Notes under the pieces: generated by a model
What the model was told of the DNA's origin: nothing
The model's input: the letters and a program-made list of their open reading frames with translations, nothing else
Databases searched by the model: none
Made by a program: the position numbers and the translations under genes
Shown: positions 1,622 to 55,230 of the stretch, in pieces
Layout of the letters: each line of letters starts with the position of its first letter
Position numbering within the stretch: the first letter of the stretch is position 1
Assembly (NCBI RefSeq): GCF_004010195.1
Contig: NC_057754.1
Coordinates: 2,199,238-2,261,396, forward strand
Length of the DNA: 62,159 bases
From: Chiloscyllium plagiosum
Taxonomy: Eukaryota
Reading direction: 5' to 3'

Positions 1622-1820
1622 AGAGTCGAAACGTGTGGCTCTGGAAAATCATTGCCGGTCAGGCAGCATCCAAGGAGCAGGAGAATCGATGTTTCGGGCA
1701 TAAGCCCTTCGTCAGGAAACGTCAATTCTCCTGCTCCCTGGATGCTGACTGACCTGCCATGCTTTTCCAGCAACACACTTTTCGACTCTGATCTCCAGCA
1801 TCTGCAGTCCTCACTTTTTC
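1622..1820. mobile_element. Penelope-like pLTR-derived inverted-repeat insert, family A
   Basis: ~70-bp inverted arms around a hammerhead core; 12-bp TSD CTATTAATCTGG at 1610-1621 and 1821-1832. Confidence 0.8.
1688..1715 (-). ncRNA. Minimal hammerhead ribozyme core (PLE family A)
   Basis: Minus strand reads CTGACGA-A-GGGC-TTAT-GCCC-GAAAC-ATC; stem I only ~2 bp. Confidence 0.65.
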
Positions 1821-2361
1821 CTATTAATCTGGGGACTCAGTTACATGTCTGGAGACCTGGGATCGAATCCTGCCATGGCGTGTGGTGGAATATGAATTCA
1901 ATAAAAATCTGAAATTTTTAAAAATCGCATCTGGTTCACTAATGTCCTTTAGAGACAGGAACGGCCATCCTGTGTGAATTGTCCAGGAACTTGTAGTGAG
2001 GAAGTGATGCTGTGGGAGTGACAGGTTCCTGGTTGATTTACACCATTTGGCTGATAGCTGTTGTCTAATAGCTTACCCACTTTCCTCATCGCCTCCTTCA
2101 CTGAACCCAAAATTGTTGTACATCTCTGATACATAACAGCATCAGCATCTTTTCAGTGCAGAGATTTAAGTTTCTGCTATGCATATCAGGTATAAATAGG
2201 CAACAATGGAAACAGTAGTATCAATTGGCATTAGACACTTGAAATTGTTTTCTAAAACTCGAAGAAATGTATAAACTTTACTTCTTAAAAGGAGATAATT
2301 TGACCATAATATTTGTTTTAGCTTGTAAAAGAACTATGTAGCTTCATCCCACAAGGAGTCT

Positions 2362-2840
2362 TGTAAGAGTGGTCTCAGGATTGGAAGGTTTGAGCCGAGA
2401 GGAAGAGGCTGAATAGGCTGGGGCTATTTTCCCTGAAGTGTCGAAGACTGAGGGGGTGACCTTACAGAGGTTTATAAGATCGTGAATAGGGTAGGGTAGG
2501 GTAAATAAAAAAGGTCTTTTCCACAAGTTGGGGCAGTCCAAAACCAGAGGGCATAGGTTTAGGCCAAGTGGGGAAAGATATAAAAGAGACCTAAGGTGCA
2601 ACCTTTTCACACAGAAGTTGGTGTGTGTATGGAATGAGCTGCCAGAGGAAGTGGTGGAGGCTGGTACAATTGCAATATTTAAAGGGCATCTGGATGGGTA
2701 TATGAATAGGAAGGTTTAGAGGAATATGGGCCAAGTACTGGCGAATGGGGCTAGATTTATTTAGGATATCTGGTCTGCATGGATGAGTTGGACCGAAGGG
2801 TCTGCTTCCATGCTGTATATCTCTCTGACTATATGAGTCT
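2362..2840 (+). mobile_element. CR1 (HER1-like) 3' fragment
   Basis: ORF 2528-2719 SKTRGHRF..FTQKLVCVWNELPEEVVEAG; tail matches 600-693. Confidence 0.9.
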
Positions 2841-3189
2841 TCCTATTGTGTTTAAATCATGTAGATCTTACTTGGTGAACTGGGTCACCACCAATGTGAA
2901 GTCCAAGAGTAGATTTGTAACAACATATTGAAGTGGATTCAGAAGTTGTTGGCCTCGTGTACACTCTATTTAAATCTATTGTATCCCAGATCAATACATT
3001 TGTAAATTATTTTTCTACATAATATTAAGACACCATGACCTAAGTTCAGTTTAAAGAAGGAATAATAATTGTATAAAAGACCATATTTTCTCTCACCTTG
3101 ATCCACAAGGTGCGCTTTTGGAAAGCGGCACTATAATGTTATAATTGGAATTGCCTGAGATTTCGCTGCACGTATTAGATTGGTTCAAC

Positions 3190-3455
3190 TGAGTCCTATT
3201 CAACTGGGCGTAAAAGAGGCCATGACTGCTATTTCAAAAGAGAACAAGAGAATTTGCCTCAGTTTCCTGGGCCAATATCGGTCCCTCAACCAAAGGCAGG
3301 CAGAGTGAATCATTGTCACATTGCTATCTCCTGGAAATTGAAGTGAGCTGCTGAACTTTCTACAATGCAATAAGTATACTTCGGAGTTATTTCCTTGTCA
3401 GTAAAATGCCTTGAGAGATCCTATGGATGTGAAAGATGCTGATTAAATACAGGTT
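3190..3455 (+). mobile_element. Deu-domain-type SINE, degraded
   Basis: GGGCGTAAAAGAGGCCATG..CCTGGGCCAATATCGGTCCCTCAACC; tail GTGAAAGATGCTGATTAAATAC. Confidence 0.6.
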
Positions 3456-3895
3456 TTGTTATTCATCCCAAGGTGAGTGAACTACAAAAACCCATTCTGC
3501 AATAATCTTCTGAACAGGTTAAAAAAAAATGACCACATGACCCATGAGGATCATTATACATAGAGCACCTGGGAATGAGGAGAGCAGCTGGAATGTAGCC
3601 AAAGGGTTCAAATGCTTTATATATAGAAGAACATTTGCAGGCTGAAGCTAATTGAACAGTTTGGATAGTTTATATATAGACAGAAAGATGCCCCTAAGGT
3701 TACAGAGTGGAATCTAATCAAGAAGCTTCAGTAGCTAATACTGTATTTGGAATTACGGATGGATAGGAATGAGTTACAAGTCAGAATCTACATGAAATGT
3801 TCCAAATAGTGTTTGTATTTATTGATTGACCTGCTCACTGCCATATATATAGCCTTACAATTACTCCAGAATGGAGTAATTTTATGTTGTTAACA

Positions 3896-4014
3896 AAATG
3901 TTGAATATCTGAAATAAAAATAGAAAATGTTGGAACACCAAGCAAGTTAACTCCTTACTGGTGCTGACCAACTTGCTGGTCAGTGTTTTCACAGTATTCT
4001 CATTTCATTTCACA
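3896..4014. mobile_element. Degenerate PLE-type inverted-repeat relic
   Basis: Arms resemble those of the 44700 and 47141 inserts; no hammerhead core left. Confidence 0.45.
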
Positions 4015-4404
4015 GTGTACTGTTGATTCAAAGGGCTGATTGTATTGTAGGGTTAGCTGCATCCTTGTTCTAGACTTAAGTATATGCCTGTGTGATGCTT
4101 GCAGTAGAAGAGTAACAGCTATAGTATCCTTAAATTGAAATTATTACAGTTTATTAACAAAGAGCTCCATGGGTTGATATATATTGAAGGTAGATTGGTA
4201 AGTTTTGTTAAAATTTGTTGTGATATGGACACATGCACATACATACACACAACCACAGACACACGCACACACGCATGCGCTCATACACAACCACTTTCAA
4301 GTAAAGTCAGGAACTTCAAAATAAAAATTCATGAGGATTGCAAATGCCATCAGATGTCTTCATGCTGCCTGTTTGCATCAGTGGTGGAGGACGTGAATGA
4401 TCAA

Positions 4405-5465
4405 GATGTTAGATGGGGTGCCAACCAAGCGAGCTGCTTGTCCTGGATAATGTCAAGCTCCTTGAGTGTTGTTGGAGCTGCACCCATCCAGGCCATTGAG
4501 GAGCATTCTGTTACACTCCTGACTTGTGCCTTATAGAAGGTGGACATGCTTTGCAGAATCAGAAGAATTATCACGTCAGAATTGAGAGTCTGTAAGTACA
4601 CTATTTATATGGCTAGTCCGTTCAATTTCTGCTGAATAGTAATCTCCACACCGTCAAGTGGGAATATTCAGTGGTAGAACTCCAAGAGAATGTCGTGGGT
4701 GATGGTTAGATTCTCTCGTGTTGAAAATGAGCATTGCATGGTACTTGTGTGGCAAAGGTGTTAACTTGCCACTTGTCATCTCAAGCATGGATATTACTTA
4801 GGGCTTGATGCAAATGGACACAGACTGCTTCAATCTCTGAGAAATTGTAAATGGATGTTGTATGATTATTGTTGTATAACATTGAATAATTATCATTGAA
4901 AATCCCCACTTCTGATGAAAGGAAGGTCACTGATGAAGCAGCTGCATACAGTTGGGGCCAGGCTACTACCCTGAGGGACTCCTGTAGAGATGTCCTTAGA
5001 CTGAAATGACTGATCTCTAAAAACCACAGCCGTCTTCCTTTGTGCTAGGTACGACACCAAGCAGCAATTGGGTTTTTCTCTCAATTCCAATTGACTTCAG
5101 TTTTGCTGGAGATCCATGATGTCACACTCGGGCAAATGCCAACCATCTCAAGGCCAATCAATCTCACCTCACCTCTAGCTCTTGTCCCCAAATTTGGGCC
5201 AAGGCTGTATGAGGTCTGAAGCCAAGTGCTCCGAATGGAATCTAAACTGAATGCCATTGGCAGGTAGTTCCTTCGTAAGTGTTACTTGACAGCCCTGTAC
5301 TTGACTCCTTCCATCACTTTGCTGATGGTGGAGAATATTGGATTGGTGTTGCTTTTTATGGATACTGAGTCAATATTTATATTGTCAAGTAGGATACCAT
5401 TGTTGTAGCTGAACTTGAATGCCTTGGCTAGAGGGGTGGCTACTTCTGGTGTATGTCTTCAGTAA
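4405..5465 (-). mobile_element. LINE-B (CR1/L2-group) RT fragment
   Basis: ORF 4893-5090 GVPQGSSLAPTVCSCFISDLP; homologous to the plus copy at 52515-54050. Confidence 0.8.
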
Positions 5466-5469
5466 TATT

Positions 5470-5580
5470 ATTAAAAATCGCACAACACCATGTTATAGTC
5501 AACCAGGTTTATTTGGAAGTACAGACTTTTGGAGCACTGCTCCTTTGTCAGGTAACTTGTGGTGCAGAATTTATAGTAGC
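5470..5580 (-). mobile_element. PLE family C pLTR fragment with decayed hammerhead
   Basis: Matches the left arm of 24578-24874; minus strand CTGACAA-A-GGAGC-AGT-GCTCC-AAAA. Confidence 0.7.
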
Positions 5581-5591
5581 TACCTACACTG

Positions 5592-5750
5592 CCCAGGGAA
5601 CTCGGTGGCTGGTGAGCTGGACAGAACTCTAGCACTCGGCAGCATTATGGCATCGTCACCGACCAGGGCGCTTGGTAGCCAGTGAGCTGGACAGAACTCC
5701 AGCACTCGGCAGCATTACGGCATCGTCACGGTCCAGGGCACTCGTGGTGA
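5592..5750. repeat. 70-bp tandem repeat, ~2.3 copies
   Basis: GTGAGCTGGACAGAACTC starts at 5612 and 5682. Confidence 0.85.
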
Positions 5751-5894
5751 GGCAGCTGGTGAGCCCAGATGGTGATTGGAAACAAGGTAGCTGGTGAGTG
5801 GGAAGGGACCCTGGCAGTTGGCAGTGAGATGGCAGTGTGGAGATTGAGTCAAGCATGGGGGAGTGCAAGCCCTCATGGGGAAAACCAAGCATAT

Positions 5895-7109: not shown

Positions 7110-7375
7110 AGCAGGTGTAATTTAAATTAAATCCATAATTCTGGAACGTAGAGCTACTCTCTGTGGTGATCACACAATTGTCGTCTGCTTGTCATAAATC
7201 CCACCTGATTTATTAATGCCTTTTAGGTTGACCTTACCTAGTCTGGCCTATATGTGACACCAGATCCACAGCATTGTGAATGACTGTTTAAGTTGCCCTC
7301 TGAAATGGGCCTAGTGGGATGGATGGGTGACAAACGTTGGCCATGCCAACTGCACCCACATCCCATGAAGAAATT
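7110..7375 (+). mobile_element. SINE-B, 3' part
   Basis: CCTTACCTAGTCTGGCCTATATGTGAC and tail CCCACATCCCATGAA. Confidence 0.65.
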
Positions 7376-11385: not shown

Positions 11386-11727
11386 TTTGAATGTCATACT
11401 AATAGTTCTTTCCTCACTTCTCATGATTCAATATTTCCACCCTTCTTTGAAAACTGATGCATAATACTTCTACCACTTGCATCAGTGCTGTACTTTCCAG
11501 AATAAGTTTGCCTCTTGTATCTCATATAGCTTGACTGCCCTCTTTTGACTAATGGACCTTGGTAGCACTAAACATCCCAGAAAAAAATATTTTTATTAAA
11601 GTTATAGGTGTCTAATGCACCACTCCAGTTTATTCCCAGACATATCCTGACGTTCAGTTCCACAGCTCCATTGCTGTCTTGTATTTCACCCAATCAACAC
11701 TCCTCATGAAGTTCGGTAAAGAGTGTT

Positions 11728-11845
11728 GATAAAGTGTGGAGCTGGAAAAAGTACAGCAGGTCAAGCAGCATCAGAGGAGCGGGAGAGTCGATGTTTCAGG
11801 CCAGGGCTCTTCATCAGGACCCAGCAGTCCTCACTATCTCCTAGA
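11728..11845. mobile_element. PLE family A insert with decayed hammerhead
   Basis: Homologous to 1622-1820; imperfect TSD TAAAGAGTGTT (11717) / TAATGAGTGTT (11846). Confidence 0.75.
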
Positions 11846-12519
11846 TAATGAGTGTTCTCAGGCTATACGATCAAAGTGAGTAATAAAACCAAGTCCATGA
11901 AATGTGTATGTGTTTTCTAGTAGGATCAAAGGTGAAGGTAAGTCCAAGCCCTTGCTGATTTATTCCAATGTATAAAATGTTAGGTTTACAAGGAAAATCC
12001 AGGAAATGTTTCTGACATATCAGTCCGGTATAAACCATTTGGAATGACTCATTAAAACCCCTTCCTTTAAAAATGCACCATTTCTGCAACTGGCTGCTCA
12101 ATGCACACAACTTAAATTTCAAAGCCCTATGAACGGTATTCTACCCCTTCCACGGTATATTCAAAAATATTTAATTAGTAAGATAAATTAAATAATTAAT
12201 ATGACATCTACATCTCAAATGCAGCTATTATTTCAATGGTAATCCCTGTAAAAACCTTTCCTGATACGAATCTTGTCTTTATTATAATACCTTAGGCTTG
12301 AACTGTGCTCCAGCCCTGAAGCATGTTTTGTTCTCTTTGCATTCATTCCTTGCTGATACCCTTCAGCAAGCAAGACTTGGATGACCTTCAAACTGCTGGT
12401 GTACCCTGTGCCATTTCTATACACACATTACAATGTATTTTATATTTGCATACATCAAGACTGAATGTTACAGGTAAATGATAAAAAGGACGTGGGACAT
12501 GGTAAAAGGTCTATTTGGA

Positions 12520-12747
12520 TGTAGGTTTGCTCACTGAGCTGGAAGGTTCAGTGGTTGGTGATTACCAACCGAAGGAAACCTAAACATATAAATAAAAAGC
12601 GGGCCATACCACCAACGCTTCACCGGAGGCTCACTGATGATGTTACCTAGTATGGTGACGAAATGTCTGAAAATGAACCTTCCAGCTCATTGAGCAAACT
12701 TATATCCAGAACCTCAACCTGACCTACAAATCATCTCAAAACTCGCT
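12520..12747 (+). mobile_element. PLE family B pLTR insert with short inverted arm
   Basis: 13-bp TSD AGGTCTATTTGGA at 12507 and 12748; 12517-12550 is inverted relative to 12674-12707. Confidence 0.8.
12631..12670 (+). ncRNA. Minimal hammerhead ribozyme core (PLE family B)
   Basis: TCA-CTGATGA-T-GTTACC-TAGTAT-GGTGAC-GAAA-T-GTC-TGA: 6-bp stem II, 3-bp stem I. Confidence 0.7.
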
Positions 12748-14360: not shown

Positions 14361-14369
14361 AAGCAAGAC

Positions 14370-15911: not shown

Positions 15912-16295
15912 TGAGTCATAGAATTATATAGCACGGAAGCAGACTCTTCGGTCCAACTCGTCCATGCCAACCAGATATCCTAAATTAACCTAGTCCCATT
16001 TACCAGCATTTGGCCCATATACCTTTAAACCCTTCCTATTCATATACCCATGCAGATGCCTTTGAAATGTTGTAATTGTATCAGCCTCCACCACTTCCTC
16101 TGGCATCTCATTCCACACATGTACCACCCTCTGCATGAAAGGGTTGCCCCTTAGCTCCCTTTTAAATCTTTCCCCTCTCACCTTGCTCCCTTTTAAATCT
16201 TTCCCCTCTCACCTTAAACCTATGCCCCATAGTTTTGGTATCCCTACCCTGGGAAAAAGACCTTGGCTATTCATCCCAATGATTTTATAAATTTC
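15912..16295 (-). mobile_element. CR1 (HER1-like) 3' end with internal 31-bp duplication
   Basis: ORF 15990-16181; TSD TAATTT; 16154-16184 repeated at 16185-16215. Confidence 0.9.
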
Positions 16296-17774
16296 TAATT
16301 TCTCCAATGTTCCAGACTCCTCATCACTTTTTTAATATGAGTTTATAAAGTTGTTGTCCGTGTCATTGCTCAAACTGCAGTTATATTGTCCTTATTGTTT
16401 CAAATATGCTAAGGTGGTTTGTTTTAGCGTTGCATTAAATGAGAGAAAGCGCACACATTGATAGCGGTGATGGGAGGGGAGGTGCTGAGTGCATCCCAGC
16501 TTGCATTGTCAGAGTTCATCCCCATCACCGGCTCTCTGGATTAATGGCTTCCCTTTCTGGCTGCTATGGTGAAGCCTTTAGATGGAGAAGCATTCCACCC
16601 ATGACAATGAGAGAGAGAGAAAACTCAGATGGCTATCTGCTAATCTCATTCTATCTTAAATGCACAGCATTCTCAGTCAGGGAAAGCAGTAGGTAGTTTT
16701 GTGGCATAGTATTTGCAGTCAAGAACACTTAACAGTGAGTCAATGCTTTTGACCCATAGTTCACTTTATTCAAACAATTTTGCTCTCTCCAAGTGTGTGG
16801 TAGAAACTGTTTAATGACATGCTACTCATTACCGGCTAAATATTTCTACTCTCTGTCACCTTATTTCACTGTCATTAAACAAATGTGTCACCAAAGGTTT
16901 AAAGGCACACTGTGATTTTCTTTGCAACGAAGACAAGCTAAAGGAGTAGCAGTTAGCCTGGTGGGTGTCCTTTATGACTTCTCAGTGAATAGCTGTGACA
17001 TGGCACCTGGCATGGTGAAGACACAATCACATCACAGCTTTGACATTAATTAAGGAGGCTTCATCTTTAATAAGCAATAATTTTAAATGCTACATTCAGG
17101 ATACATCGAAAAGTTCACCACCTTTGTAATAATGCTATTCAGGGTGGTATATTTCCCAACTGTGCTCTCATTTTCCTTTTAGTTTGTGCAGAAATTAAGG
17201 ACATCTGACAAAGAAGAGGACTGACTGTACTCAACTGCTTCTCTTTTTCATTTGTGCAAGTCTCATATTCCCAGATCTCCCATCCACTCCTCTGACAGTA
17301 AGAGAGGCATTTCTTAGTTTGAGACTATCCCATCCAAAGTCCCATAACAGAAAGTATAAGCAAAGACAGGAAGCACTAACTGCTTATCTTTTACTGCTTC
17401 TCCTGTTACGATGTCAAGGGTCAAGGCTTTGGATGAAGCAAAAGAGTCATGTGGACTTCTATGTAAAAGATAAAGTTTTGGAGCTCAGTTTACACTCTCG
17501 AAATTCTTGCAATCCCATGGTATATACAAGCAGGTTCAAACCCCAGTCAGCTGGTAATTCACTGGTTGGGGAATTCATGCCCCCATGATTTGATTAAGAT
17601 CAAGACTTTGCACCAGACCTGTTTGACTCCATCACCACATGTGTAATCTTAACCCAGTCTGAGCAAAGACTGTAATTGGCAGTTTCACCCAGAAATGCTA
17701 AGGGATGATTGAAAACATCAGGTTAGTGCAGGAAGATTCAGAAACCTTGGTGGGTGTTCTGTGTTCAGAGTAGT

Positions 17775-18309: not shown

Positions 18310-18785
18310 ACTTATTCACACTGTGATGCTCTCACGTAACTGGGATAGGTCATGGGTTTGGAATGTTCTGGCCAAAAAGCCTTGAGTAACTGTAGTTTGT
18401 CTTGTAGGTGGCATAAACTGCTGCCATTGTAACACTGGTGAAGGGAGTGGATGCTTAAAGTGGTGGCTGAAATGCCACTCAAGTGGACTAGGCTGACTGA
18501 CCTCCAACAGTAAAAGTGAGGACTGCAGATGCTGGAAATTAGAGTCAAGAGTGTGGTATTGGAAAAACACAACAGGTCAGGCAGCATCCAAGGAGCAGGA
18601 GATTTGACATTTCGGGCAAAAGCCCTTCATCAGGACCTATAACAGCCACAACCCTCCTCCTTTGTGCTAGGTATGATTCCAATCACTGAAGTGTTTTCCA
18701 CCTAATTCCCATTGACGCCAGTTTGGTTAGCGATGCTTGATGCCATGTTTGCTGAAATGTCGCTTTAACATCAAAAGCAGTCAAA
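18310..18785 (-). mobile_element. LINE-B fragments interrupted by a PLE insert
   Basis: 18640-18780 matches 5020-5160; 18310-18480 matches the reverse complement of ~53700-53860. Confidence 0.65.
18511..18634 (-). mobile_element. PLE family A pLTR with hammerhead core
   Basis: Minus strand CTGATGA-A-GGGC-TTTT-GCCC-GAAA-TGTC; flanked by GACCTCCAACAG / GACCTATAACAG. Confidence 0.8.
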
Positions 18786-20657: not shown

Positions 20658-20955
20658 TAGAGTCACAGTCATAGAGATATACAGCACAGAAACAGACCCT
20701 TTGGTCAAACTCATCCATACTGAACAGATATCCTAAATTAATCTAGTCCCAATGCTAGCACTTGGCCCGTATCCCTCTAAAACGTTCTTATTCATAAACC
20801 CATCCAGATGCCTTTTAAATGTTGTCATTGTACCAGCCTCCACCAGTCCCTCTGGCAGCTTATTCCATACATGCCCCACCCTCTGTGTGAAAAGATTGCC
20901 CCGTAGATCCCTTTTAAATCTTTCCCCTCTCATCTTAAACCTATACCCTCTATTC
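20658..20955 (-). mobile_element. CR1 (HER1-like) 3' end
   Basis: ORF 20733-20933 and the GAGTCATAGAG tail. Confidence 0.9.
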
Positions 20956-24275: not shown

Positions 24276-24577
24276 GAATGAATCATGTGCCCATCGGCCT
24301 GCTGATTAGCAACCGAGCACAGATTGTGAGGTAATGCTGTAATGTTCTGGGGAGGCCCCCAAATTGCCATGACATTTGTAATCTTTTTGAACAATGGTCC
24401 CAGTGTGCTACCATGTTAGTGAATCAGAAAGCTGCACACCCGACAATATGAGAGACTAGTGCATCTGGCACTGGTTCAGATCATGATTAACTGTAAGGTT
24501 GGGAATGATAGTTGGTTATAATTGCTGCTGAATTGTTGCTAACTGCATACTGTAGAATCTCACCTACCCAGAATAAG

Positions 24578-24874
24578 GTTAAAAATTACACAACACCAGG
24601 TTATAGTCCAACAGGTTTAATAGGAAACACTAGGTTTTGGAGTGCTGCTCCTTCATCAGGTGGTTGTGGAGTACACAATTGTAAGACACAGAACTAATAG
24701 CAATAAATTTGCTATAGATTCTGTATCTTACAATTGTGTCCACTACAACCCCCTGATGAAGGAACGGCGCTCTGCAAGCTAGTGTGCTTCCAATTAAACC
24801 TGTTGGACTGTAACCTGGTGTTGTGTGATTTGTAACTTTGTACACCCCAGTCCAACACTGGCATCTCCAAATCA
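24578..24874. mobile_element. PLE family C long palindromic insert
   Basis: ~125-bp inverted arms centred near 24706, with CTGATGA in each arm; 13-bp TSD TACCCAGAATAAG at 24565 and 24875. Confidence 0.85.
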
Positions 24875-25494
24875 TACCCAGAATAAGATTGATTCTGTCC
24901 AAAATAACTCCAGTTAAGACCTCTTGCATTCATAGGACAGAAGGACACCTATGTCGTCAGTTTGCATTTGATCCAAAACTTTATTCTGTTGAAATCAGTC
25001 ATTCCACTTGTAAACAATTGCAATACTTACCTAGACCATTCCCATCACTGCTGTTGGAAGGTGAACTCTGGCTTTCTGACAGACAGGACTTATGTTTTTT
25101 GAGTATTTAAGAAGTGGCATTGAAATTGAAAACTTCTGTGATATTAGTCAGTTTTGATTTTGTTCAGTCCTGTCTCTGCCACGCCTGTGCCTAAAACAGA
25201 CAACTCAGAAAACTGCAGATTCTTACAAATTCCTGAAATCACTCAGAATACTCTTTATGTGAATTTCAAATCTCAAAACAACGACTAGCATGTTTCCCAT
25301 TTTAAGCTAATTTTGCAACTGCAGGTGAATGTGATGGACATGTTCTAACTACAGTATGCATATACAGACAGGATTAGCACAACTGTCACAGGAATTTAAT
25401 AGAAAATGGAATAAAACATTAACAAAATGGTTAAACATTTTTGTAGCATAGCTGTAGAGGTATTTATATTATGGAAAAGTCCAAAACTCAGGAT

Positions 25495-30884: not shown

Positions 30885-31344
30885 CAGACCTACACAGCCT
30901 GCCACACCTCACCAAAATGGTTTGCAGTAAATAATGCCCATGCTATCAAGTCTCCAAGACCTGTACCACACCACGACGCAGTGACTTCAAACGAGCAATG
31001 ATAAATTTTGTTTAAAAAAGACTAAAGTGCTATAGCAAGATCATCATCACCTGAAAGATGAACAATGGCAGGTTCACACCTTGTGTCAAGGTCAACATGG
31101 TAGCAACGGAGTGGGCTGCTTCTGGGCTCCTGTGCCCAGGCTTGTCCTCTTCATCTTCATCTTCCTTTTCTTTTTCTTTGTCCTTTTACTTCTTCTTCAT
31201 TTCTCAGTTTTATTAAGTTTATGCTCAACCTTACCTGATAAAGAGAGTTCTTTGGCAGGACGGAGGCCTCAATGGGTTCTGGATCGGCATGGCTACAGAG
31301 TCAGCCAGCGTGTAAAACATAGGGAGGGTTCCTCACTTCCACAT

Positions 31345-32600
31345 GGAATGGGACTCTGGTGGTGGCATGGTGTGGGCTGGTGCAGCCAGAGTGGGGACTG
31401 TAGTAGCAGCATGATGTGGGCTGGTGAAGCCTAGAGGGGAATGTGGCAGCAGCATGGTGTGGGCAGGTGAAGCCCAGAGTGGGGACTGGTCAGCGGCATG
31501 GTGTGGGCTGGTGAATCCCGGAGTTGGGACTGATGCAGTGACATGGTGTGGGCTGGTGAGCCCAGAGGAGAATGTGGCAGCAGCATGGAAGTGGGGACTG
31601 GTGCAGCGGCATGGTGTGGGCTGGTGAATCCCGGAGTGGGGACTGGTGCAGCGACATGGTGTTGGCTGGTGAGCCCAGAGTGGGGACTGTGGCAGCGACA
31701 TGGTATGGGCTGGTGAATCCCGGAGTGGGGACTGGTGCAGCGGCATGGTGTGGGCTGATGAATCCCGGAGTGGGGACTGGTGCAGCAACATGGTGTTGGC
31801 TGGTGAGCCCAGAGTGGGGACTGTGGCAGCGACATGGTATGGGCTGGTGAATCCTGGAGTGGGGACTGATGCAGCGACATGGTGTGGGCTGGTGAGCCCA
31901 GAGGAGAATGTGGCAGCAGCATGGTATGGGCTGGTGAATCCCGGAGTGGGGACTGGTGCAGCGGCATGGTGTGGGCTGATGAATCCTGGAGTGGGGACTG
32001 GTGTAGCAACATGGTGTGGGCTGGTGAGCCCAGAGGGGAATGTGGCAGCAGCATGGTGTGGGCTGGTGAAGCTCAGAGTGGGGACTGGTGCAGCTACATG
32101 GTGTGGGCTGGTGAAACTCAGAGTGGGGACTGGTGCAGCGACATGGTGTGGGCTGGTGAAACTCAGAGTGGGGACTGGTGCAGCTACATGGTGTTGGCTG
32201 GTGAATCCTGGAGTGGGGACTGTGGCAGCGGCATGGTGTGGGCTGGTGAATCCCGGAGTGGGGACTGGTGCAGCTACATGGTGTGGGCTGGTGACGCTCA
32301 GAGTGGGGACTGGTGCAGCAACATGGTGTGGGCTGGTGACGCTCAGAGTGGGGACTGGTGCAGCAACATGGTGTGGGCTGGTGAAGCTCAGAGTGGGGAC
32401 TGGTGCTGCTACATGGTGTGGGCTGGTGACGCTCAGAGTGGGGACTGGTGCAGCTACATGGTGTGGGCTGGTGACGCTCAGAGTGGGGAATGGTGCAGCT
32501 ACATGGTGTGGGCTGGTGAAGCTCAGAGTGGGGACTGGTGCAGCAGCATGGTGTGGGCTGGTGAAGCTCAGAGAGGGGACTCTGGCAACTGTTTGGAGCT
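31345..32600. repeat. 45-bp G-rich minisatellite, ~28 units
   Basis: Unit GAGTGGGGACTGGTGCAGCTACATGGTGTGGGCTGGTGAAGCTCA; 15-aa periodicity in overlapping ORFs. Confidence 0.95.
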
Positions 32601-33377: not shown

Positions 33378-33595
33378 CTACAGACTGCTTAAACACAATT
33401 TCCCTTTCATAAAGCCATGTTAGCTCTGATGGATCACAGTGTGATTTTCTAAGTAACCTATTGCAACCTCCTCAATAATGGAATATAGCATCTTTCCTAA
33501 AACAAACATGAGGCAAACTAACCCACAGTTTTCTGCTTTATGCTTCTCTACTTTCTTGAATCGCTGGAGAAGTCAGAGATCTTGGAATGTTGTCG

Positions 33596-34140
33596 AGTCA
33601 TAGAGATGTGCAGCACAGAAACAGACTCTTTGGCCCATGCCGATCAGATATCCCAACTTAATATAGTCTCATTTGCCAGCACTTGGCCCATATCCTTCTA
33701 AACCCTTCCTATTCATATACCCATCCAGATGCCTTTTAAATATTGTAATTGTACCAGCCTCCACCACTTCCTCTGGCAGCTCATTCCATACACATACCAC
33801 CCTTTGCATGAAAAAGTTTCACCTTAGGTCCCTTTTAAATTTTTCCCCTCTCATCTTAAACCTATGCCCTCTAGTTCTGGACTCTCCCAACCCAGGGAAA
33901 AGACCTTGTCTATTCACCCTATCCGTGCCCCTCATGGTTTATAAACCTCTTTAAGGATCCCCTCAGCCTCCAACACTCCAGGGAAAACAGACCCAGCCTG
34001 TTCAACCTCTTCCTATAGCTCAAACCTTCTAACCCTGGCAACATCCTTGTAAATCTTTTCTGAACCCTTTCAAGTTTCACAACATCCTTCCTATAGCAGG
34101 GAGACCAGAATTGTAGAATTGTACACAATATTCCAAAAGT
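33596..34140 (-). mobile_element. CR1 (HER1-like) 3' fragment
   Basis: ORF 33919-34128 QFWSPCYRKDVVKLERVQKRFTRMLPGL; HER1-type tail. Confidence 0.9.
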
Positions 34141-36097: not shown

Positions 36098-36228
36098 AGG
36101 AGAAAGTGAAGACTGTAGGTACTTGAGAGTCAGAATCAAAAAGCGTGGGGCTGGAAGAGCACAGCAGATCAGGCAGCGTCCGAGGAGCAGGAGAATCAAC
36201 ATTTCAGGCATAAGCCCATCATCAGGAA
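36098..36228 (-). mobile_element. PLE family A pLTR with hammerhead-like core
   Basis: Minus strand CTGATGA-T-GGGC-TTAT-GCCT-GAAA-TGTT; ATTGTTCA on both flanks. Confidence 0.8.
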
Positions 36229-36679
36229 TTGTTCATTGGCCAGAAATGTGTAACTTGCCTTCCTCCTCACACAACTGCTGTCTGACCTACCGAGAGTTTC
36301 TGATAGGAAGTCAGAAAATGCAGCTCCTCTCTTTACTATCTGTACAGACAAGAGCAACTTACTTGTGGTGACTGCAAACATTCACACTCGTTATTCTCAG
36401 CGATGTGGCGCTCTCAGGTGATGTGGCACTTCCTAACAAGCTCTCTGTTTTCAGCATGTTTGTCAGCCAGTCCCCCAGAATCACTTGGAGTACATGCCTA
36501 TAATGAGCACCTGCACGCTCCCACACAGCCTAGGTCTGGATTTCAGCCAAGTAGCTGTGAACAGAAGGGACACTCGTCTGTGAACTACCCTCGCACACCT
36601 CTCAGCGGCTGTGTTCAAAACAGCACGAGCTGCAGCTGTCCAGGGGGCAAGACAGGCCAAATTCAACAATGGCTCAGGG

Positions 36680-37215: not shown

Positions 37216-37425
37216 TTTAGGGCACCTTCTTTCTATAGATTGTACGTTCTTTGCTTCTCAGAACTTTACATAAGGCTAAGGAAATTGTCTGGATAGCTCA
37301 CAGGTTTGCTGTTCATATCAAGGAACAACAGAATTTCAGTGTCCTCTTGATCTGCGAGCAGAAGACATATGATTAATGATTTAGTAAAATGGCTCATTGA
37401 TTGCAAGGAACTTTGGATCCATTAC

Positions 37426-37950
37426 TCTGGGATCTCTCTGTTCCTGTACCCTGGGATCTCTCTGTTCCTGTACCCTGGGATCTCTCTGGTGCTGTACCCT
37501 GGGATCTCTCTGGTGCTGTACCCTGGGATCTCTCTGTTCCTGTACCCTGGGATCTCTCTGGTGCTGTACCCTGGGATCTCTCTGGTGCTGTACCCTGGGA
37601 TCTCTCTGGTGCTGTGCCCTGAGGTCTCTCTGGTGCTGTGCCCTGAGGTCTCTCTGGTGCTGTGCCCTGGGATCTCTCTGGTGCTGTACACTGGGATCTC
37701 TCTGTTCCTGTACCCTGGGGTCTCTCTGGTCCTGTACCCTGGGATCTCTCTGTTCCTGTACACTGGGATCTCTCTGTTCCTGTACCGTGGGATCTCTCTG
37801 GTGCTGTACCCTGGGATCTCTCTGGTCCTGTACCCTGGGATCTGTCTGGTTTCTTATTGTGGTGAACTCTCTGGTCCTCTACTATGGAGTTCTCTCTGGT
37901 CTTGTATTCTGGAATATGTCTTGTTGTGTTCTCTGAGGATCTCTCTGGCT
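37426..37950. repeat. 24-bp minisatellite, ~18 good units plus degenerate ones
   Basis: Unit CTGGGATCTCTCTG(T/G)T(C/G)CTGTACC; 8-aa periodicity in overlapping ORFs. Confidence 0.95.
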
Positions 37951-37959
37951 CTGTTAAGT

Positions 37960-43257: not shown

Positions 43258-43499
43258 CAACCACTCCCCATGCTAGTGAGTTCCAGATGCTCAACAGTTT
43301 CTACATATAAAGTTCCTATCATATTTTTACTGACTATTTTATATCAACAGCAACAAGTAATGCTGTCCCATAAGAGGAAATATTCATTCCTTCTCCTTTC
43401 AATCGAAACTTTTCAAAATTTTGAAGACCTCAAATAGGTAACCCCTCGCCCTTTTCTTTCAAGAGTGAAGAAACCAGGAGACCCATCCTATTATCCTCT

Positions 43500-43826
43500 C
43501 ATAGAGTCATAGAGATATACAGCATGGAAACAGGCCCTTCAGTCCACCTCAATATCTTAAATTAATCTAGTCACATTGGTCCATATCCCTTTAAACCCTT
43601 CTTATTCATCTACCTATCCAAATGCCTTTTAAATGCTATAATTGTACTGGCTTCTACCACTTTCTCTGGAAGTTCATTCCATATATGCACCGCCCTTTGC
43701 GTGAAAGGTTGCCCCTTTTAAATCTTTCCCCTCTCACCTTAAACCTATGTTGTCTGGTTTTGGACTCCCTTACCCCAGGGAAAAGACCTTCACTATTCAC
43801 CCTATCCATGATTTTATAAACTTCTA
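43500..43826 (-). mobile_element. CR1 (HER1-like) 3' end
   Basis: CATAGAGTCATAGAG tail; homologous to 33596-33950. Confidence 0.9.
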
Positions 43827-44077
43827 TCTAATATACATTCTCACACATTTCTTTATTGTTCTGTTATGATCCCAGCTGATGGTACTACTGGACATGAAAC
43901 TCAGCTTGATAAACTTTTTAATTGTTTGGCCAGTTCATGTGGTGGACCACTACTGAAACATGCACATACAAGGCTTCAGATTTTCTTTAACATCAGAATT
44001 TGTACTGAAGAATCTGTACCTAGGTACCGTGTATCTAAGGTGGTGCTGTAAGTGGTTACTTGTAAACTTTTCACTGT

Positions 44078-44526
44078 AATCATAGAGTCATAGAATTGTA
44101 TGGAATGGAAACAGACCCTTCGGTCCAACCAGTCCGTGCCAACCATAATCCCAAACTAATCTAGTCCCACCAGCCTGCTCCTAGCCTATATCCCTCCAAA
44201 CCTTTCCTATACATGTACTTATCCAAATATCTTTTAAGCATTGTAATTGTACCAACATCCATCACTTCCCTCAAGAAGCTCATTCCACATGTGAACCACC
44301 CTCTGTGTAAAAATATTTGCCCCTTATGTCTTTGTTAAATCTTTCCTCTCTCACCTTAAAAGTGTGCCCCCTCATCTTGAAATCCCCCATCCTAGGGAAA
44401 AGATAATTACCATTAAGTCTATCTATGCCCCTTAATATTTTATAAACTTCTATAAGGTTGCCTGTCAACCTCCTACACTCCAGTGAAAACAGTCCCAGCC
44501 TATCCAGCCTTTCTTTATAACTCACC
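44078..44526 (-). mobile_element. CR1 3' fragment inserted into a Rex-type tail
   Basis: ORF 44280-44528 SYKERLDRLGLFSLECRRL; host CTTTTCACTGTA resumes as CATGTGACAATAAA and (TTCAA)n. Confidence 0.85.
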
Positions 44527-44699: not shown

Positions 44700-44923
44700 A
44701 AACCAAAAAATTGCAAATGTTGGAAATCAGAAACAAAAACAGAAATTGCTGGAGAAACTCAGCAAATCTGGCAACATCTCTAGAAAGAGACACAGAGTTT
44801 CAGTGGTCCAGTCCATTTCACTTTCTGAAAAAAGGGTCAGTGGACCTGAAACGTTAATTCTGTTGTATTTCCACAGATGCTGCCAGATCTGCTGAATTCC
44901 TCCAGCAATTTCTGTTTTTGTTC
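44700..44923. mobile_element. PLE family D inverted-repeat insert
   Basis: Arms AACAAAAACAGAAATTGCTGGA / TCCAGCAATTTCTGTTTTTGTT; core CTGAAAA..GGGTC-AGTG-GACCT-GAAACGTT from 44825. Confidence 0.75.
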
Positions 44924-46949
44924 CCTTTTCTCAACATTATCCATTGCAGAAATCCAGAGAAATTACACACCTATCATCTCAATTCTTAAGTTTCTGCTTA
45001 ACTGACTCCTTACAGTTTCTTTGACTATGGAGGCAATTCACTGAGTACTTTCCAAATCTGCCAGCATGACTTCTCACAAATTTAAGAACTTAAACTTTTG
45101 CAGTTCCAATAACCTGTGCATTACGAACCAAACTCTCCTGGTTTGGAAACTTCAAAAGCTAACCCTTCTGTTAAAGCAACTGCTTCCATGAGCTACTCTG
45201 AAATCTTCCTCCCAGTAGAGAAATTAAACTTGCTTCTGCCCTCAACTTTGCTGAATTTTGGAAACCTTTCTCATCCTAGATTCTTATGAAATGGAAACAA
45301 AGTCAACAGCCATACGTGTTTATTCCAGTTACAACAGTATAAACGTCTTTCCATTAACACACCAAGGATCTGCAGTCACCTCCTTTATAACAAATACTAG
45401 ATTTAGTCACCGTTCCAGAAGGTCTTTCTGACCTTGTCTTTTTTTAAAACATGAAAATCCTTCAAGGAAGTAACCAACAATTATGTGCTTCTGTTTTGAA
45501 ATGAAAATTCCAAGTATGATATTAGTACAAATTAAAGTAAACACCCTTCATCACAGTGCTTGTAAATCTTCTTTGCATCCTATCCAGTGCCTTGATCTCA
45601 TGTTTTAAAAACAGTGACCAGAAGTACCCTTAAGTGTAATTTGACCAAAATTTGTTGCACGATATATGACTTCACTGTTTTTCAATTCTCTCCCTCTGCA
45701 TTGGAAATCCTTTTTCTTTCAGTCTTGTAAACTGGAACCAGTTTCTGAGAAACTGCTGCTGGAAGAGCAAGGAGTTTCACAACAGGCAGGAAGGAGCCAC
45801 TTGTTAAAGAAACACAAGTGCCAGCAAAGAGAAATGTTTTTGACGGCAGGGAGTCAAATGGACAGGAGAGGCTCTGCATGGAACTGTGGGTTTCCTGTTT
45901 ATCTATCTTACTTTAAGAATTAGGTTTACTGGAATTTATTGGGTATCACATCCAAACATTCATGCCTGTTTTATTGGAGCTTTGATGGCTTGTGTCTCAA
46001 ACATGTTCAGCTTGTGTGAAAACTTTAAACTCAAAGGCACACCTACCTTTTTTATGGGACACTTGGAAGGCTGCAATTTGCAGTGTTTCAGTGAATAACA
46101 AACGATGCAGAAACCAGGGCAAGGAAATGAAATGTTTCCTTGAAATCTGATGTGTGAGAGAGAAAGTTGTCAAGTTAAACAAATGGAGAAGTAGAGTGGG
46201 TTGCATTAGTTGTCTTCCTGATCTGCCCTAGCTTCTCGTTTGATTCTCACCATCCAGTGGTAAGCTCACCTCCCATTTTTTTGACATTCAAAATCTAGTC
46301 AATGTTGAAAAAAAAACTAAGCAGAATTTCCTTCCTTCTTTGAGGGGGAGGTTTCTTGCCAATGATTTCCTATCTGTGCTCTTTTCAGAATGAAGGTGCT
46401 CATTGCAGGCACCAGCTTCACTAACCTGTTCACAAACACACTACAGCTGTCTCCCCTCCAGTTCAGGATTCTGATAAAACAAGAATTCTCAGTGCCATTT
46501 CCTCAGGGGACAGGCATTGTCCTTGAAGAGCAACACTTGCTGTCCCTGTTTCATTTGTCTCTTGACAGGCTGCTCTGAGCTGTCGCTTCTGGCTGAGCAT
46601 ATATAAAATATAAAAGTGCCTTTCTGGGGAATGAATTGATTAGTACACAGCTTGAAAGCAGAGCAGCAGCCTTGGATTCTAGGATAGCTAAGGGGAGCCA
46701 GAATGATTACAAGAATCTATTTGTCATGGAAGCACAGCAATATAATTGATCTTGAGATGTGGGTGTCATTAGATGTTTATATTGTTTTGCAGCTTTTCCC
46801 TTCACATTTTCTTTGCGAACCAACTCAAGCTGGATTAATACAGCACCACAAACACAGGTCATTATCTGGTATTACAACCAAGAGGTCATTCAGCCTCTGC
46901 TAACCTGAGTGAATTTTAGCAATCTGCCAGCTGTCTCTGATAGAGCTCA

Positions 46950-47520
46950 GTTGGTAGCACCTTTCACAACCTCAAGACATCCCGTAGTACTTCACAGGCA
47001 GTACAGTCAAACTCCTCAGAAAGCTGACAGCCAAATTGTGCACAGCAAGCTTCCTCAAATGACAATATGATAACAAGCAGATAAGCAATGTTTTTGTGTG
47101 TAATAAATAATGGCCGCAAGACACCAGAGAGAATTCCCTTTGAAACAAAAACAGAAACTGCTGGAAAAGCTTCAGCAGCTCTGGCAGCATCGGTGGAGAG
47201 AAATCAGAGTTAACATTTCAGGTCGAGTGTCCCTTCCTCAGAACTGTTCTGAGTTCGAGGAAGGGTCACTCGACTTGAAACATTAACTCTGATTTCTCTC
47301 CCTTGATGCTGTCAAACCTGCTGAGTTTTTCTAGCAGTTTCTGTTTTTGTTTCTGATTTACAGCATCTGTTGTTTTTTTCAGTTCCTCTTTGGGAAATGT
47401 CAGTGTGGATCTATTCATCACACTGAAGTGAGGATTCAGGACAAGCTGTTTAAGATCTCATTCAAAAATGGCCCTGACATATCAGCCTACATTTGTATTC
47501 AGAACCTGGAGTGGTGGTTA
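46950..47520 (-). mobile_element. Deu-type SINE split by a PLE insert
   Basis: AGCACCTTTCACAACCTCAAGACATCCC..CAGCCAAATTGTGCACAGCAAGC; resumes after 47380. Confidence 0.65.
47141..47380. mobile_element. PLE family D palindromic insert
   Basis: ~100-bp inverted arms centred near 47246, with a hammerhead-like core in each arm. Confidence 0.8.
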
Positions 47521-51214: not shown

Positions 51215-51319
51215 TTAGATGGGTCTTTTTTCCCAACAACTCCAATAGAAGTGTATTTCACCTTCCTCTGACCCATGATCAGGCATTCATGTGTTGTACA
51301 TGCAAGTTATGGTCTGCTT

Positions 51320-51678
51320 CATAAGACCATAAGACATAGGAGTGGAAGTAAGGCCATTCGGCCCATTGAGTCCACTCCGCCATTTAATCATGGCTGATGG
51401 GCATTTCAACTCCACTTACCAGCATTCTCCCCGTAGCCCTTAATTCCTTGTGACATCAAGAATTTATCAATCTCGGCCTTGAAGCCACTTAGCGTCCCTG
51501 CCTCCACTGCACTCCGCGGCAATGAATTCCACAGGCCCATCACTCTCTGGCTGAAGAAATGTCTCCGCATTTCTGTTCTGAATTTACCCCCTCTAATTCT
51601 AAGGCTGTGCCCACGGGTCCTAGTCTCTTCGCCTAACGGAAACAATTTCTTAGCGTCCACTCTTTCCAAGCCATACAA
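51320..51678 (-). mobile_element. Young CR1 3' fragment with (CATAAGAC)n tail
   Basis: ORF 51406-51702 TRTRGHSLRI..FFSQRVMGLWNSLP; CpGs retained. Confidence 0.9.
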
Positions 51679-52998
51679 ATGTCTGGATTTTGACGTTGGC
51701 ATGAGGCCTGTGATTGAATTGCCTCATCATTCTCTGGGTGAATGCATTGTCACTGGTTTCTTTCATCACTTCGTCCTGCAATTCAACCCGAACATTTCAA
51801 GGTGGTTGGCATTCCATGTTTTGTATACCTCCATAACTATCTTTACTTTTATCTTTTAAATGTAGCAAGTAGTTTCCCTACACATTTTCTCAACAGCAAT
51901 TCCAAATCTACAGTGTGTTCTTTTTGTTTAATTGTCCCGTCCACTCAAAGTGGGGTGTACTTGTGTAACTGAATGTATTCCTGAAGGTATGTCTCCCGTT
52001 TCTCAAAGCCCATGCCCCATTAATAGCTCTTTTCCACTTTCACTAATTTTATTTTAAAACTGGTAAAACAAAATATCGAAAAGAAGTAAAAACTATGTTT
52101 TTTTTTCATGCCTATATGCTTTTTCTCTTAAAATGCTGGCAACAGCGTTCAAACATTTAATCTTCAAGTTCTGGAGCCTGCAACGAGGTAATCCTGGAGG
52201 GTTGGCAAACCTGCCACTAACTCTTGCTTAAATTGTTTGTTTCAGTAAGTGATGAACATGCGCTTTTAAGCAACGAATGATCTTGATTTGTGATGCAACT
52301 GAGCCCAATCCTGAACTCTCCTAATAAGCTTAAAAAGCCAGAAGTGCAAATGCCTTCTATAGCTCAAGGGCAATGAAGTGAACTGTAGTATCTTATCTGC
52401 TAACAGATTGTGATCCTCCAACTCAGTATGGACCATGAATCTGCCATGGAAGGACTAAGTACCACATAGAACAGGAATGCATTCTTGCCGCTTTATGTTT
52501 AAGAGTGGAACTAAGGGCAACTGCATTTTGCAGCACTTGACCTAGTGTGGCATCAAGGAGCCCCAGAAAATTAAGTTAATGGGAATCAGGGAAAGCTGGA
52601 TGGAGTCAGATCCAACCCAGAGGAAGATGGTTGTGGTGATTGGAAGTCAGTCATCTCAATCCCAGCACATCTCTGCAGGAGTTTATCATGTCAGTGCACT
52701 AGGACCTAACTGTCTTCAACTGCTTCATCAGTGACTGTCCATGCAATATCAAGTCAGAAGTGCAGATGTTCACTGATAAGTTTACAATTCAGCACAATTT
52801 ACAACTCCTCAGGTACTGAAGCAGCCCATGTCCAAACGCAGCAAGATCTGGACAATATCCAGGCTTGGACTGATAAACAGCAAGTAACATTCACACCACA
52901 CTTGTGCAAAGCAATGAGCATCAGCAACAAAAGAGAAGCCAATCATCGACCCTGACATTCCATGGCATTACCATCACCGAAGCCCCCACTGTCAACTT

Positions 52999-53322
52999 GG
53001 TGGCTCAGTGGTTAGCAGTACTGTCTCCCAGCACCAGGAAATCAAGTTCGATTCAACCCTCAGGCAATTGTCTGTGTGGAATTTGCACATTCTCCCCATG
53101 GTGCTCCAGTTTCCTCCCATAGTCCAAAGATGAGCAGTTTAGGTGGAATGGCTGTGATAAATTGCCCAGAGTTTCCAAGGATGTCCGGGCTAGGTGGGTT
53201 AGCTATGAGAAATGTAGGATTTCAGGAATAGGGTAGAGGGTGAATCTGGGTGGGATGCTCGTCAGGGGATCAGTGTGGACTCGAAGGGCTGAATGGCCTG
53301 CTTCCACAATGTAGAAATTCTA
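52999..53322 (+). mobile_element. HE1-type V-SINE
   Basis: A box TGGCTCAGTGG, B box GTTCGATTC, CR1-type tail. Confidence 0.85.
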
Positions 53323-53517
53323 AAATAAATGGCTTTGGGATTATCATTGACCAGAAACTAAATCAGACATATTAAAAACTTTGACTACAAGAGATGGTCA
53401 GAGGCTGGGAATTCTGCAATGAGAAACTCACCTCCTGTCTTTCCAAAGCCTGTCCATCATCCACAAGGCACAACACAGGAATATGATGGTTTCTGCATAT
53501 CTGGATGAGTGCAGCTC

Positions 53518-53634
53518 ATCCTTTGCTCTGTTCTGTTACCCTATTGCACTTTGTATGGTATGATCTGCCAGTATTGCATGCAAAACGAAAGTTTTCATGG
53601 TACCTCGGTACATATGACAGTAATAAATAAAATC
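53518..53634 (+). mobile_element. Rex1/Babar-type 3' tail insert
   Basis: Homologous to 39720-39846; interrupts LINE-B at GAGTGCAGCTC / CAACAACA. Confidence 0.7.
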
Positions 53635-54827
53635 ACTCCAACAACATTCAAGATGTTCAACACCATTGAGGACAAAGCAGCTTGTTTGATTGGCACGTCA
53701 TTGAACAAAATCAATATTTACTTCCTCCATCATCCACGGTCAGTAGCAACAATGTACCATCTCCAAGCTGCACTGCAGCAACTCACCATTAACAGCTCCT
53801 TCCAAACAGGTGATCTTTACTATCTAGAAGGACAAGGGCAGCAGATACATGGGAACACCACCCTCTACAACTTCCCCTTCAACCACTCACCATCCTGACT
53901 TGTAAATATATTGCCGTTCCTTCAGTGTCACTGTGTCAAAGTCCCGGATCTTCCTCCCTAACAGCATTATGGGCACATCTACTCCCCACACAGGGCAGCT
54001 TGGCTTCTCCAGGGGCAATTAGGGATGGACAGTAAACGCTGGCCCATGAGTGAGTAAAACCAAATGCTGCAGCCAAACAGTAAACTCTTCCTATGCCACC
54101 AGTAGGAGGGTCAGCTTTGAACTGAAAGGTACACACTAACCTTTACCTGCTCAGCAACCTGCGCCTCTCTGCCCCTTCAGGATTCAAATGATTGGCCCAG
54201 AGTTTCCCTCTCTGATCCTTTCACATTTTCAACTTCTCTCTACAGAAGTGGCGTTTCCATGAATCATCGTGTAATGATGACTAGTTGGGGGAGGATTATA
54301 TTTCAAACAGGAATCAGTCAGTACAGATACATTCTGATAATGAAATTTATGGCATGGAGTCTTTGGACAGGATGTGCAGAGTCGAATTGAATCGCAAAAG
54401 AAACCTTGTAATTAGCACACAATTGAATTCTGATTGATTCCGTCTACTTTTTTGATGTTCTAATTGATTGCTTCCTTCCATCTCCTTCCCTGAGCATTTC
54501 CTTTACCATCTACCTGACTGAGACCACAGAAACGGTGCTATCTTTTCACTAATCCTAGATTCTCCTTTTAGTGTGGAGTTAGTTGAACTCAGTCTGGCAG
54601 TTAGTGTGCCGTTCCAGTTCCTCCCAGCATCCCAGGGAAAGATTTTCAGCAAGGTTCCTTCTTCTATCACTTGCTGAAATACGCCGTTATGTGTGTTGGA
54701 TACATTGGGCTTGTAAGGGGCGCATGCAAAAGAGATGTGACTCAGTCGCTAAGATTGCTCCTTCGGAGTTAGAAAGTCAAGGGATCAAGCCTCGCTTCAG
54801 ACTGACTCCCCTACTGCAGCGGAGATG

Positions 54828-55070
54828 ACCTGGGGGTTGCAGTGAGAGAGAGACTCACTGAGATTCTTGTGGAGAGAGGAGGAGAACTTCTTCAAAGTAG
54901 GCATCCTTACAAGAGGATTCGCAATAAGGTTAAAATCAACTAGGCAAAAGTGAGGACTGCAGAGGCTGGAAACCAGAGTTTAGATTAGAGTGGTGCTGGA
55001 AAAGCAAGCAGGTCAGGCAGCATCCGAGGAGCAGGAAAATTGACGTTTCGGGCAAAAGCCCTTCATCAGG
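54828..55070 (-). mobile_element. PLE family A pLTR plus adjacent internal sequence
   Basis: 54945-55070 homologous to 18511-18634; extends ~110 bp further. Confidence 0.75.
55042..55069 (-). ncRNA. Minimal hammerhead ribozyme core, intact consensus
   Basis: CTGATGA-A-GGGC-TTTT-GCCC-GAAAC-GTC; stem I not formed in this copy. Confidence 0.75.
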
Positions 55071-55230
55071 AGGGAAAGCTGCATTGCTGGAGGTAACATA
55101 TGTTTGTGAGCAACAGTAGGCCGAGGACCTGTCTGTTCTCTCAGGTGGACACAAATGAAGCTACAATACCATGAAGAGTGGGGGAGATGGGGGGAAGCGA
55201 CTCCTCAGACTCATGGGCCATTTGCATTCC

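Follow-up and report, generated by a model that had tools for sequence, protein, structure and literature searches.

A 62,159-nucleotide stretch of the Chiloscyllium plagiosum genome (NCBI RefSeq assembly GCF_004010195.1, contig NC_057754.1, positions 2,199,238 to 2,261,396 of the forward strand; ‘the window’ in what follows) contains dispersed copies of a short repeat, here termed family A, that carries a predicted hammerhead ribozyme and is, on sequence grounds, the 3′ pseudo-long terminal repeat (pLTR) of an endonuclease-bearing (EN+) Penelope-like element (PLE). PLEs are the closest retroelement relatives of telomerase. Copies of family A stop preferentially at a defined 5′ edge a few nucleotides upstream of the ribozyme core, both in the window and in a sample of the whole genome. 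This edge is probably the start of the template RNA, with target-primed cDNA running off the RNA 5′ end and being joined either to the target or to a second cDNA. Such an edge would be a genomic record of the end of the template, and could show how PLEs copy themselves.

We number positions on the ribozyme strand, with the first C of CUGANGA as +1, which places the predicted cut between +28 and +29. The original prediction, made from the letters of the window, held that five family-A copies share one end just 5′ of CUGAUGA, that this end is not the predicted cleavage site, and that the copy at 55231 extends further. All five 5′ ends indeed fall at −2 to −4 on the minus (ribozyme) strand, namely at −3 (1718), −2 (11819), −2 (18635), −4 (36229) and −2 (55071, set by eye where the aligner continued to −10 across mismatches), while cleavage would put them at +29. 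TCAGGA stands at 1712, 11814, 18630, 36222 and 55066, with TC(A/G)TCAG immediately before each. The plus-strand copy at 55231 reaches −56, and is the sole copy in the window to retain the putative promoter. The family-A features are as follows.

1622..1718, minus strand: family-A pLTR arm, 5′ end at −3, tail-less; core C (+1) at 1715.
1716..1823, plus strand: head-to-head partner arm, +21 to +126, with tail; TTC microhomology at the join.
11720..11819, minus strand: family-A arm, −2 to about +96; core C at 11817.
11824..11844, plus strand: very short inverted partner arm, tail only; weak match, 85–90% over about 20 nt.
18512..18635, minus strand: family-A solo arm, −2 to +123, with tail; core C at 18633.
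36098..36229, minus strand: family-A solo arm, −4 to +126, with tail; core C at 36225; flank duplication ambiguous.
54816..55071, minus strand: family-A copy, from −2 across the tail to about +253 in the element body; core C at 55069.
55231..55374, plus strand: independent family-A copy, −56 to +91; 12-bp target duplication (55219–55230 and 55375–55386).
55250..55256, plus strand: TTTATCT box at −35, a putative TATA-like element.
55279..55284, plus strand: TCATTC, initiator-like, with A(−4) at 55281 as putative RNA start; also the 5′ strand of helix I.
55285..55316, plus strand: minimal hammerhead motif of type I, made up of CUGANGA, an extra A, a helix II of 4 bp and GAAAC-GUC; cleavage is predicted to follow 55312.

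The first two arms form a hairpin flanked by a 12-bp target duplication at 1610–1621 and 1821–1832. Additions to the original prediction are the partner arm at 1716–1823, the mini arm at 11824–11844 and the extension of the 55071 copy to 54816; this last part runs for 125 nt past the usual 3′ end and is common to many genomic copies. In that copy the tail (54940–54960, minus strand) ends in CTCAC followed by a pyrimidine tract and AG, similar to a branch point and splice acceptor, just before the element body.

We sampled 160 evenly spaced 10-kb regions of the genome (1.6 Mb), in which 312 matches were found outside the window; 33 of these were put aside as a different family. The remaining 279 family-A arms were aligned by an anchored method against 43 real long copies, and after removal of 29 censored arms gave 250 mappable 5′ ends. 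These ends are not evenly spread: 78 lie in −10..−1 (22 of them at −3 and 12 at −4), 7 in −20..−11, 44 in +1..+9 and 55 in +1..+11, so that the per-base stop rate in −10..−1 is 24 times that of −250..−21 and 16.5 times that of +12..+60. Uniform simulated truncation (n = 248) yielded 28 calls in −10..−1 for 12 planted, a 2.3-fold artefact that is far under the signal, and fails to reproduce the pile-up; the expectation of non-random ends is thus borne out. Simulated ends planted at a single base gave a narrower spread than that observed, and the real pattern is therefore best described as an upstream edge with trimming below it. The same edge is used by copies that continue into the element body, since 8 of the 17 that reach the core also stop there. 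Scaling 180 arms per Mb to 3.56 Gb gives an estimated 6 × 10^5 arms genome-wide, with a fixed 5′ edge in about 40%.

An artefact of alignment or assembly, in which diverging upstream sequence makes homology seem to end at the conserved core, is extremely improbable as the source of this pattern. Upstream sequence does truly diverge between subfamilies, and the pipeline does inflate the −10..−1 bin as described. However, the flanks of solo short copies are 49% pyrimidine as compared with 75% for true upstream sequence, do not cluster, and often adjoin target duplications (a candidate duplication was found at 29 of the 76 solo copies examined), and a simulation for a second family, family C, returned 8 calls for 7 planted ends, that is, without inflation.

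The original prediction had also offered a discrete non-autonomous subfamily with this terminus, and that suggestion did not survive comparison of short and long copies, which share their stem-loop variants and are mixed as neighbours: a long nearest neighbour was seen for 16 of the 56 long copies and 35 of the 107 short ones (Fisher p = 0.72), and the short fraction stays at 58–71% across four identity classes (26/41, 49/69, 33/57 and 17/24). A short, SINE-like master with a fixed terminus is accordingly a very improbable source of the short copies. A further family, B, is almost all short (3 extended copies among 73 arms), as such a master would predict, but in family A no common variant and no identity class is confined to short or to long copies, the ends spread over 20 nt, and the partner arm differs at each site.

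The assignment of family A to the EN+ PLEs draws on several features. Long relatives reach upstream into a reading frame with a C-terminal GIY-YIG domain; in one of them (L017:1751–2146) the frame matches PF01541 with 23.6 bits (cut-off 22.6) and continues into the pLTR, and a short stretch upstream of an assembly gap in the same locus resembles a reverse transcriptase (RT). The 3′ ends form two clusters about 37 nt apart, near +82..+93 and +125..+129, as expected of a tail of the 30–40 bp type, and other EN+ PLE traits are present in the form of an inverted 5′ copy, partial tandems and target duplications. The ribozyme motif fits the minimal type I hammerhead of PLEs, with self-cleavage predicted after GUC. 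Among 108 ungapped arms, whose selection favours kept core bases, the core bases are kept in 94–99% and helix II is paired in 99–107; compensatory changes in helix II are few (4 A-U at one pair). Helix I is weak in family A, with three pairs (−1/+29, −2/+30 and −4/+32) and a mismatch; A(−4) faces U(+32) in 79 of 86 arms. An Rfam scan at E ≤ 1 gave no match for the motif, and folds of single copies did not return the ribozyme fold. Ends at +29..+31 are in slight excess (9 versus 3.2 expected, p = 0.006), in part as microhomology joins of helix I.

Identity as a non-LTR retrozyme was rejected: the copies in the window are solo or head-to-head rather than head-to-tail tandems, although a handful of two-unit tandems do occur elsewhere. 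Short, internally deleted partial tandems occur at L192, L197, L198, L208, L212 and others in the L192–L220 series, and are candidate non-autonomous templates; in them a unit ending at +253 to +300 is fused to a downstream pLTR piece. Some are joined at −5..−8, but these were selected by the query and may be microhomology deletions, and we do not count them as support for the edge. Assembly gaps adjoin young copies in L002, L004, L008, L014 and L023, at almost the same place in each, about 85 nt upstream of the core, and are perhaps collapsed hairpins.

Close head-to-head pairs account for 130 of the 279 family-A arms (65 pairs; the pairing criterion was closeness of the cores, so that pairs with long arms are missed). 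After three self-matches among 60 pairs were left out, a flanking target duplication of at least 8 nt (8–19 nt) was found in 42 of the 57 valid pairs as compared with 1.2 in shuffles, which indicates that the pairs arose as single events. Just one of the two arms bears a tail in 46 of the 51 family-A pairs that could be classified (p = 2 × 10^−9) and in 25 of 27 family-C pairs, a rule that supports priming on both target strands in vivo. The tail-less arm is the longer at its 5′ side in 23 of the 46 family-A pairs, and the tailed arm in 13. Fold-back of a single cDNA cannot place the longer 5′ part and the tail on opposite arms; most likely, therefore, both arms were copied from RNA and then joined by their ends. 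Many of the junctions share 1–4 nt, and several link −2..−9 to +29..+31, the two strands of helix I. Microhomology joins of this kind do occur near the core, but appear subsidiary to the defined end.

What lies at the edge resembles a site of transcription initiation. TATA boxes stand about 30 nt upstream of the start, which often lies within an initiator consensus. Long family-A copies carry TTTATCT at −35 to −37 in 46 of 55 cases, with a spacer that differs between subfamilies, and have A at −4 in 96%, mostly within TCATTC (35 of 55). In family C, for which 104 arms were found in the same 160 regions and 95 were uncensored, 35 ends lie in −10..−1 and 15 in +1..+9, and the median of the ends in −20..−1 is −6 as compared with −4 in family A (p = 0.003 for all C arms, 0.096 in the random sample alone). 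The family-C edge, at −8 to −10, falls past the end of helix I, which has 3 bp in this family; among the 30 long copies listed, TATAAA is visible at about −38/−40 in nearly all, and CCA places an A at −8. For family B, mapped against its three extended copies only, 34 of 73 arms map to −6..−1, and a TATA-like box is present in two of these three, at 29 and 32 nt upstream of the A in TCAGT. In families A, B and C, then, the edge would coincide with an A in an initiator-like context, with a TATA or TATA-like box some 30 nt upstream of it, and shifts with the box (−4 versus −8). A splice acceptor at the edge, as in Drosophila virilis, was rejected for family A, in which there is no AG at −6..−4 and no common upstream exon.

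A six-frame Pfam search upstream of family C gave no match, and tblastn with the family-A peptide gave one match there (L140, 33%, E = 4 × 10^−9); with a single match and no Pfam domain, the link of family C to an ORF is weak. The window holds a family-C head-to-head pair (24565–24887) in which both arms reach about −45/−50, the TATA box is kept and the target duplication is 13 bp, as well as two family-B hairpin pairs joined near the hammerhead core (44716–44938 and 47142–47369).

A pathway of the following kind probably produces these insertions. The pLTR promoter (box near −35, initiator A at −4) would start an RNA; the element protein would nick both target strands and prime cDNA at two internal sites (+88 and +126), as in vitro for the anole element; and each cDNA would extend 90–130 nt to the RNA 5′ end. 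Joining of a cDNA to the target would leave a solo copy, and joining to a second cDNA through 1–4 nt of microhomology, after variable trimming, a hairpin pair. Long copies would arise when priming takes place at the downstream pLTR of read-through RNA, or through a template jump. As template, either the 5′ pLTR of a coding RNA or a short RNA made from any copy that has a promoter may serve.

Copying of an RNA cap by reverse transcriptase adds a base at the end of the cDNA, and in family C a G precedes all nine ends at A(−8) (post hoc, raw p = 6 × 10^−6; 1 of 1 in held-out loci), as expected of cap copying. Several observations weigh against run-off from an RNA start. Each of these G residues can also be read as partner arm, local duplication or target. 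Family A has no comparable excess (G before 8 of 27 ends at −4), and the extra bases in its solo copies are explained by mini arms or duplications. The modal family-A end is −3 (38) rather than −4 (27), the A at −4 is also explained by helix I pairing, and the family-A box is a non-canonical TATA whose other strand reads GATA. Raw RNA reads (run X21, which bears a different organism label and of which about 2% was read) showed no pile-up of starts on families A and C, and a second run, X22, yielded 0 reads; 93% and 77% of the placed reads run into unrelated sequence and are thus mostly passengers. The best loose 5′ end of these reads for family A is −4 (187 reads, mixed letters), a position that reflects where genomic copies end and not where RNA begins. 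A clear TATA is present near −48/−53 in families D and E, yet only 1 of their 39 arms ends in −30..−13, and run-off would thus not be general. In D. virilis Penelope transcription begins some 120 nt (371 versus 491) above the end of the intron, which is the landmark for helix I (PMC2377424; for this and the papers cited below we refer to those parts available to us), so that the layout proposed here is not universal.

The original prediction also offered RT arrest or template switching at stem I. The defined, non-random end that it described stands, and −4 is the outer pair of helix I in family A; arrest is nevertheless less likely than run-off, because the family-C edge lies beyond its helix I and follows a TATA box, and because only 4 of 39 D and E arms, which have the same ribozyme core, end in −12..+9. 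We consider it unlikely that the RNA extends beyond the edge and that RT halts, or changes template, when it meets the ribozyme fold (helix I) or a protein bound just upstream of it. The coincidence of −4 with the last helix I pair in family A would fit such stalling, as would the end of family B at its own helix I edge and the junctions between the two helix I strands. The enzyme, however, enters the fold from its 3′ side, whereas the peak lies at the opposite side; helix I is weak in family A; and 34 of the 39 D and E arms pass the core and also −30, from which it follows that the ribozyme alone does not stop the enzyme. One family-D hammerhead pair lies in the window (12515–12745); its plus arm spans −73 to +111 and its minus arm starts at +41, TATAAAT is found near −48, and a 13-bp duplication is apparent by eye.

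A cut end is improbable as well. The endonuclease of the anole element prefers ATT (PMC11167929), and ATT stands exactly at −4..−2 in family A, with the modal end at −3, so that GIY-YIG trimming of the cDNA or duplex at this motif, or processing of the RNA there by an RNase, might set the edge. Ends pile up, however, in families B and C, where the edge reads AGTT and ACAACCAC-type respectively and has no ATT, and neither the long downstream shoulder nor the G before −8 is expected of a cut.

The RNA reads also bear on the 3′ side of the template. At the family-C locus L298, poly(A) is attached at positions 385 (350 reads) and 388 (442 reads), that is, at +58 and +61, 12–15 nt after ATTAAA and before a GU-rich tract, where the genome has no A-run. 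One orientation is in about 5- to 20-fold excess upstream of this site, and read depth drops to about a quarter past it; beyond +61 some RNA continues or stems from other copies. AATAAA or ATTAAA is found in 133 of 146 family-C arms and in 17 of 204 family-A arms. The poly(A) site of family C is upstream of both priming sites, an LTR-like layout, while family A mostly lacks the hexamer. The reads at L298 may be host RNAs that use the poly(A) signal (368–388), of which thousands of dispersed copies could end host transcripts.

Retroviruses and LTR elements prime minus-strand strong-stop DNA near the RNA 5′ end, giving a short run-off cDNA. It is possible, but rather doubtful, that the pLTR is a working analogue of an LTR, with strong-stop cDNA and strand transfer through an R-like repeat. 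The putative order in family C would be TATA (−38/−40), start (−8), hammerhead (+1..+30), poly(A) signal (+41), poly(A) site (+58/+61) and priming (+85 and +121). A polyadenylated RNA would then have priming sites at its 5′ end only, and the target-primed strong-stop cDNA would have to jump through the −8..+60 repeat to the RNA 3′ end for the rest to be copied. On this view the short copies, in their hundreds of thousands, would record jumps that failed, and the pLTR and partial tandem would be rebuilt by a second jump. Against this stand the reads that pass +61, the scarcity of the signal in family A, and the RNA itself, which has another organism label and may be from the host. The likeness to strong-stop DNA lies in the short run-off cDNA and the U3-R-U5-like order of family C, and does not make these elements members of the LTR class; unlike in LTR elements, priming would be by nicked target DNA rather than tRNA, there is no integrase, and strand transfer is hypothetical.

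Other repeats in the window comprise tandem arrays that give rise to long repetitive open frames (58904–62159, with a unit of about 24 bp; 31342–32587; 37423–37954) and a dispersed 270–460 bp repeat (323–693, 2376–2837, 15913–16297, 20667–20952, 33595–34136 and 43499–44524) that probably represents LINE 3′ ends.

Earlier work has described pLTRs, tails, inverted copies, solo hammerheads and internal priming; in the open-access literature we found no account of a clustered PLE 5′ end or of a strong-stop model. EN+ PLE insertions have a pLTR, a 30–40 bp tail at one end and an adjacent inverted, 5′-truncated copy (Craig et al. 2021, PMC8557442; Arkhipova et al. 2013, PMC3846280), and family A shares this architecture of head-to-head arms, one-sided tail, target duplications and palindromic junctions. 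In the available parts of those accounts truncation is frequent, no fixed edge is given, and inverted junctions are read as self-priming on an antisense template. Family A differs from the latter in that 23 of 46 pairs need two RNA-templated arms. A rotifer pLTR has a putative TATA plus initiator (PMC3846280). As in metazoan PLE minimal hammerheads (Cervera and De la Peña 2014, PMC4209133), the family-A motif has the core, an extra base before helix II, G10.1-C11.1 and a palindromic helix III stub, although its helices are shorter than those published (4 bp in II and three pairs in I). The thousands of solo or opposite-strand motifs in metazoan PLEs were put down to truncated elements, with no end mapping in the portion of that paper at hand. 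Non-LTR retrozymes are likewise non-coding, hammerhead-bearing and derived from PLE pLTRs, but form head-to-tail tandems (bioRxiv 10.64898/2026.07.22.740005, available part), whereas family-A copies are solo or head-to-head.

D. virilis Penelope requires a partial tandem; its promoter is internal and lacks a TATA box, and an intron separates the start from the ribozyme (Schostak et al. 2008, PMC2377424). A start within the pLTR is common to that element and to our proposal for family A, which has instead a −30 box upstream of the putative start and no evidence of an intron there. The closest parallel is PAc, the Poseidon element of Anolis carolinensis, in which both strands are nicked in vitro and priming is internal at two sites, to which the two 3′ ends that define the tail are tied (Frangieh et al. 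2024, PMC11167929). Family A resembles PAc in its putative RT and its C-terminal GIY-YIG domain, its hammerhead at the pLTR-ORF junction, its two 3′ ends, the apparent priming of both target strands, and the lack of any sign that cleavage sets the ends of inserts; a ‘Poseidon type’ label would follow by analogy. The PAc account, in its available text, deals with the 3′ (priming) ends only and assumes a multi-copy RNA, with no clustered 5′ end, start or poly(A) site. No mechanism was obvious for the PLE cycle and rebuilding of the pLTR in the earlier work (PMC2377424), and the later steps are described as unvalidated in the more recent study (PMC11167929). The edge described here yields exact positions (−4, −8 and +58/+61) for an existing in vitro system.

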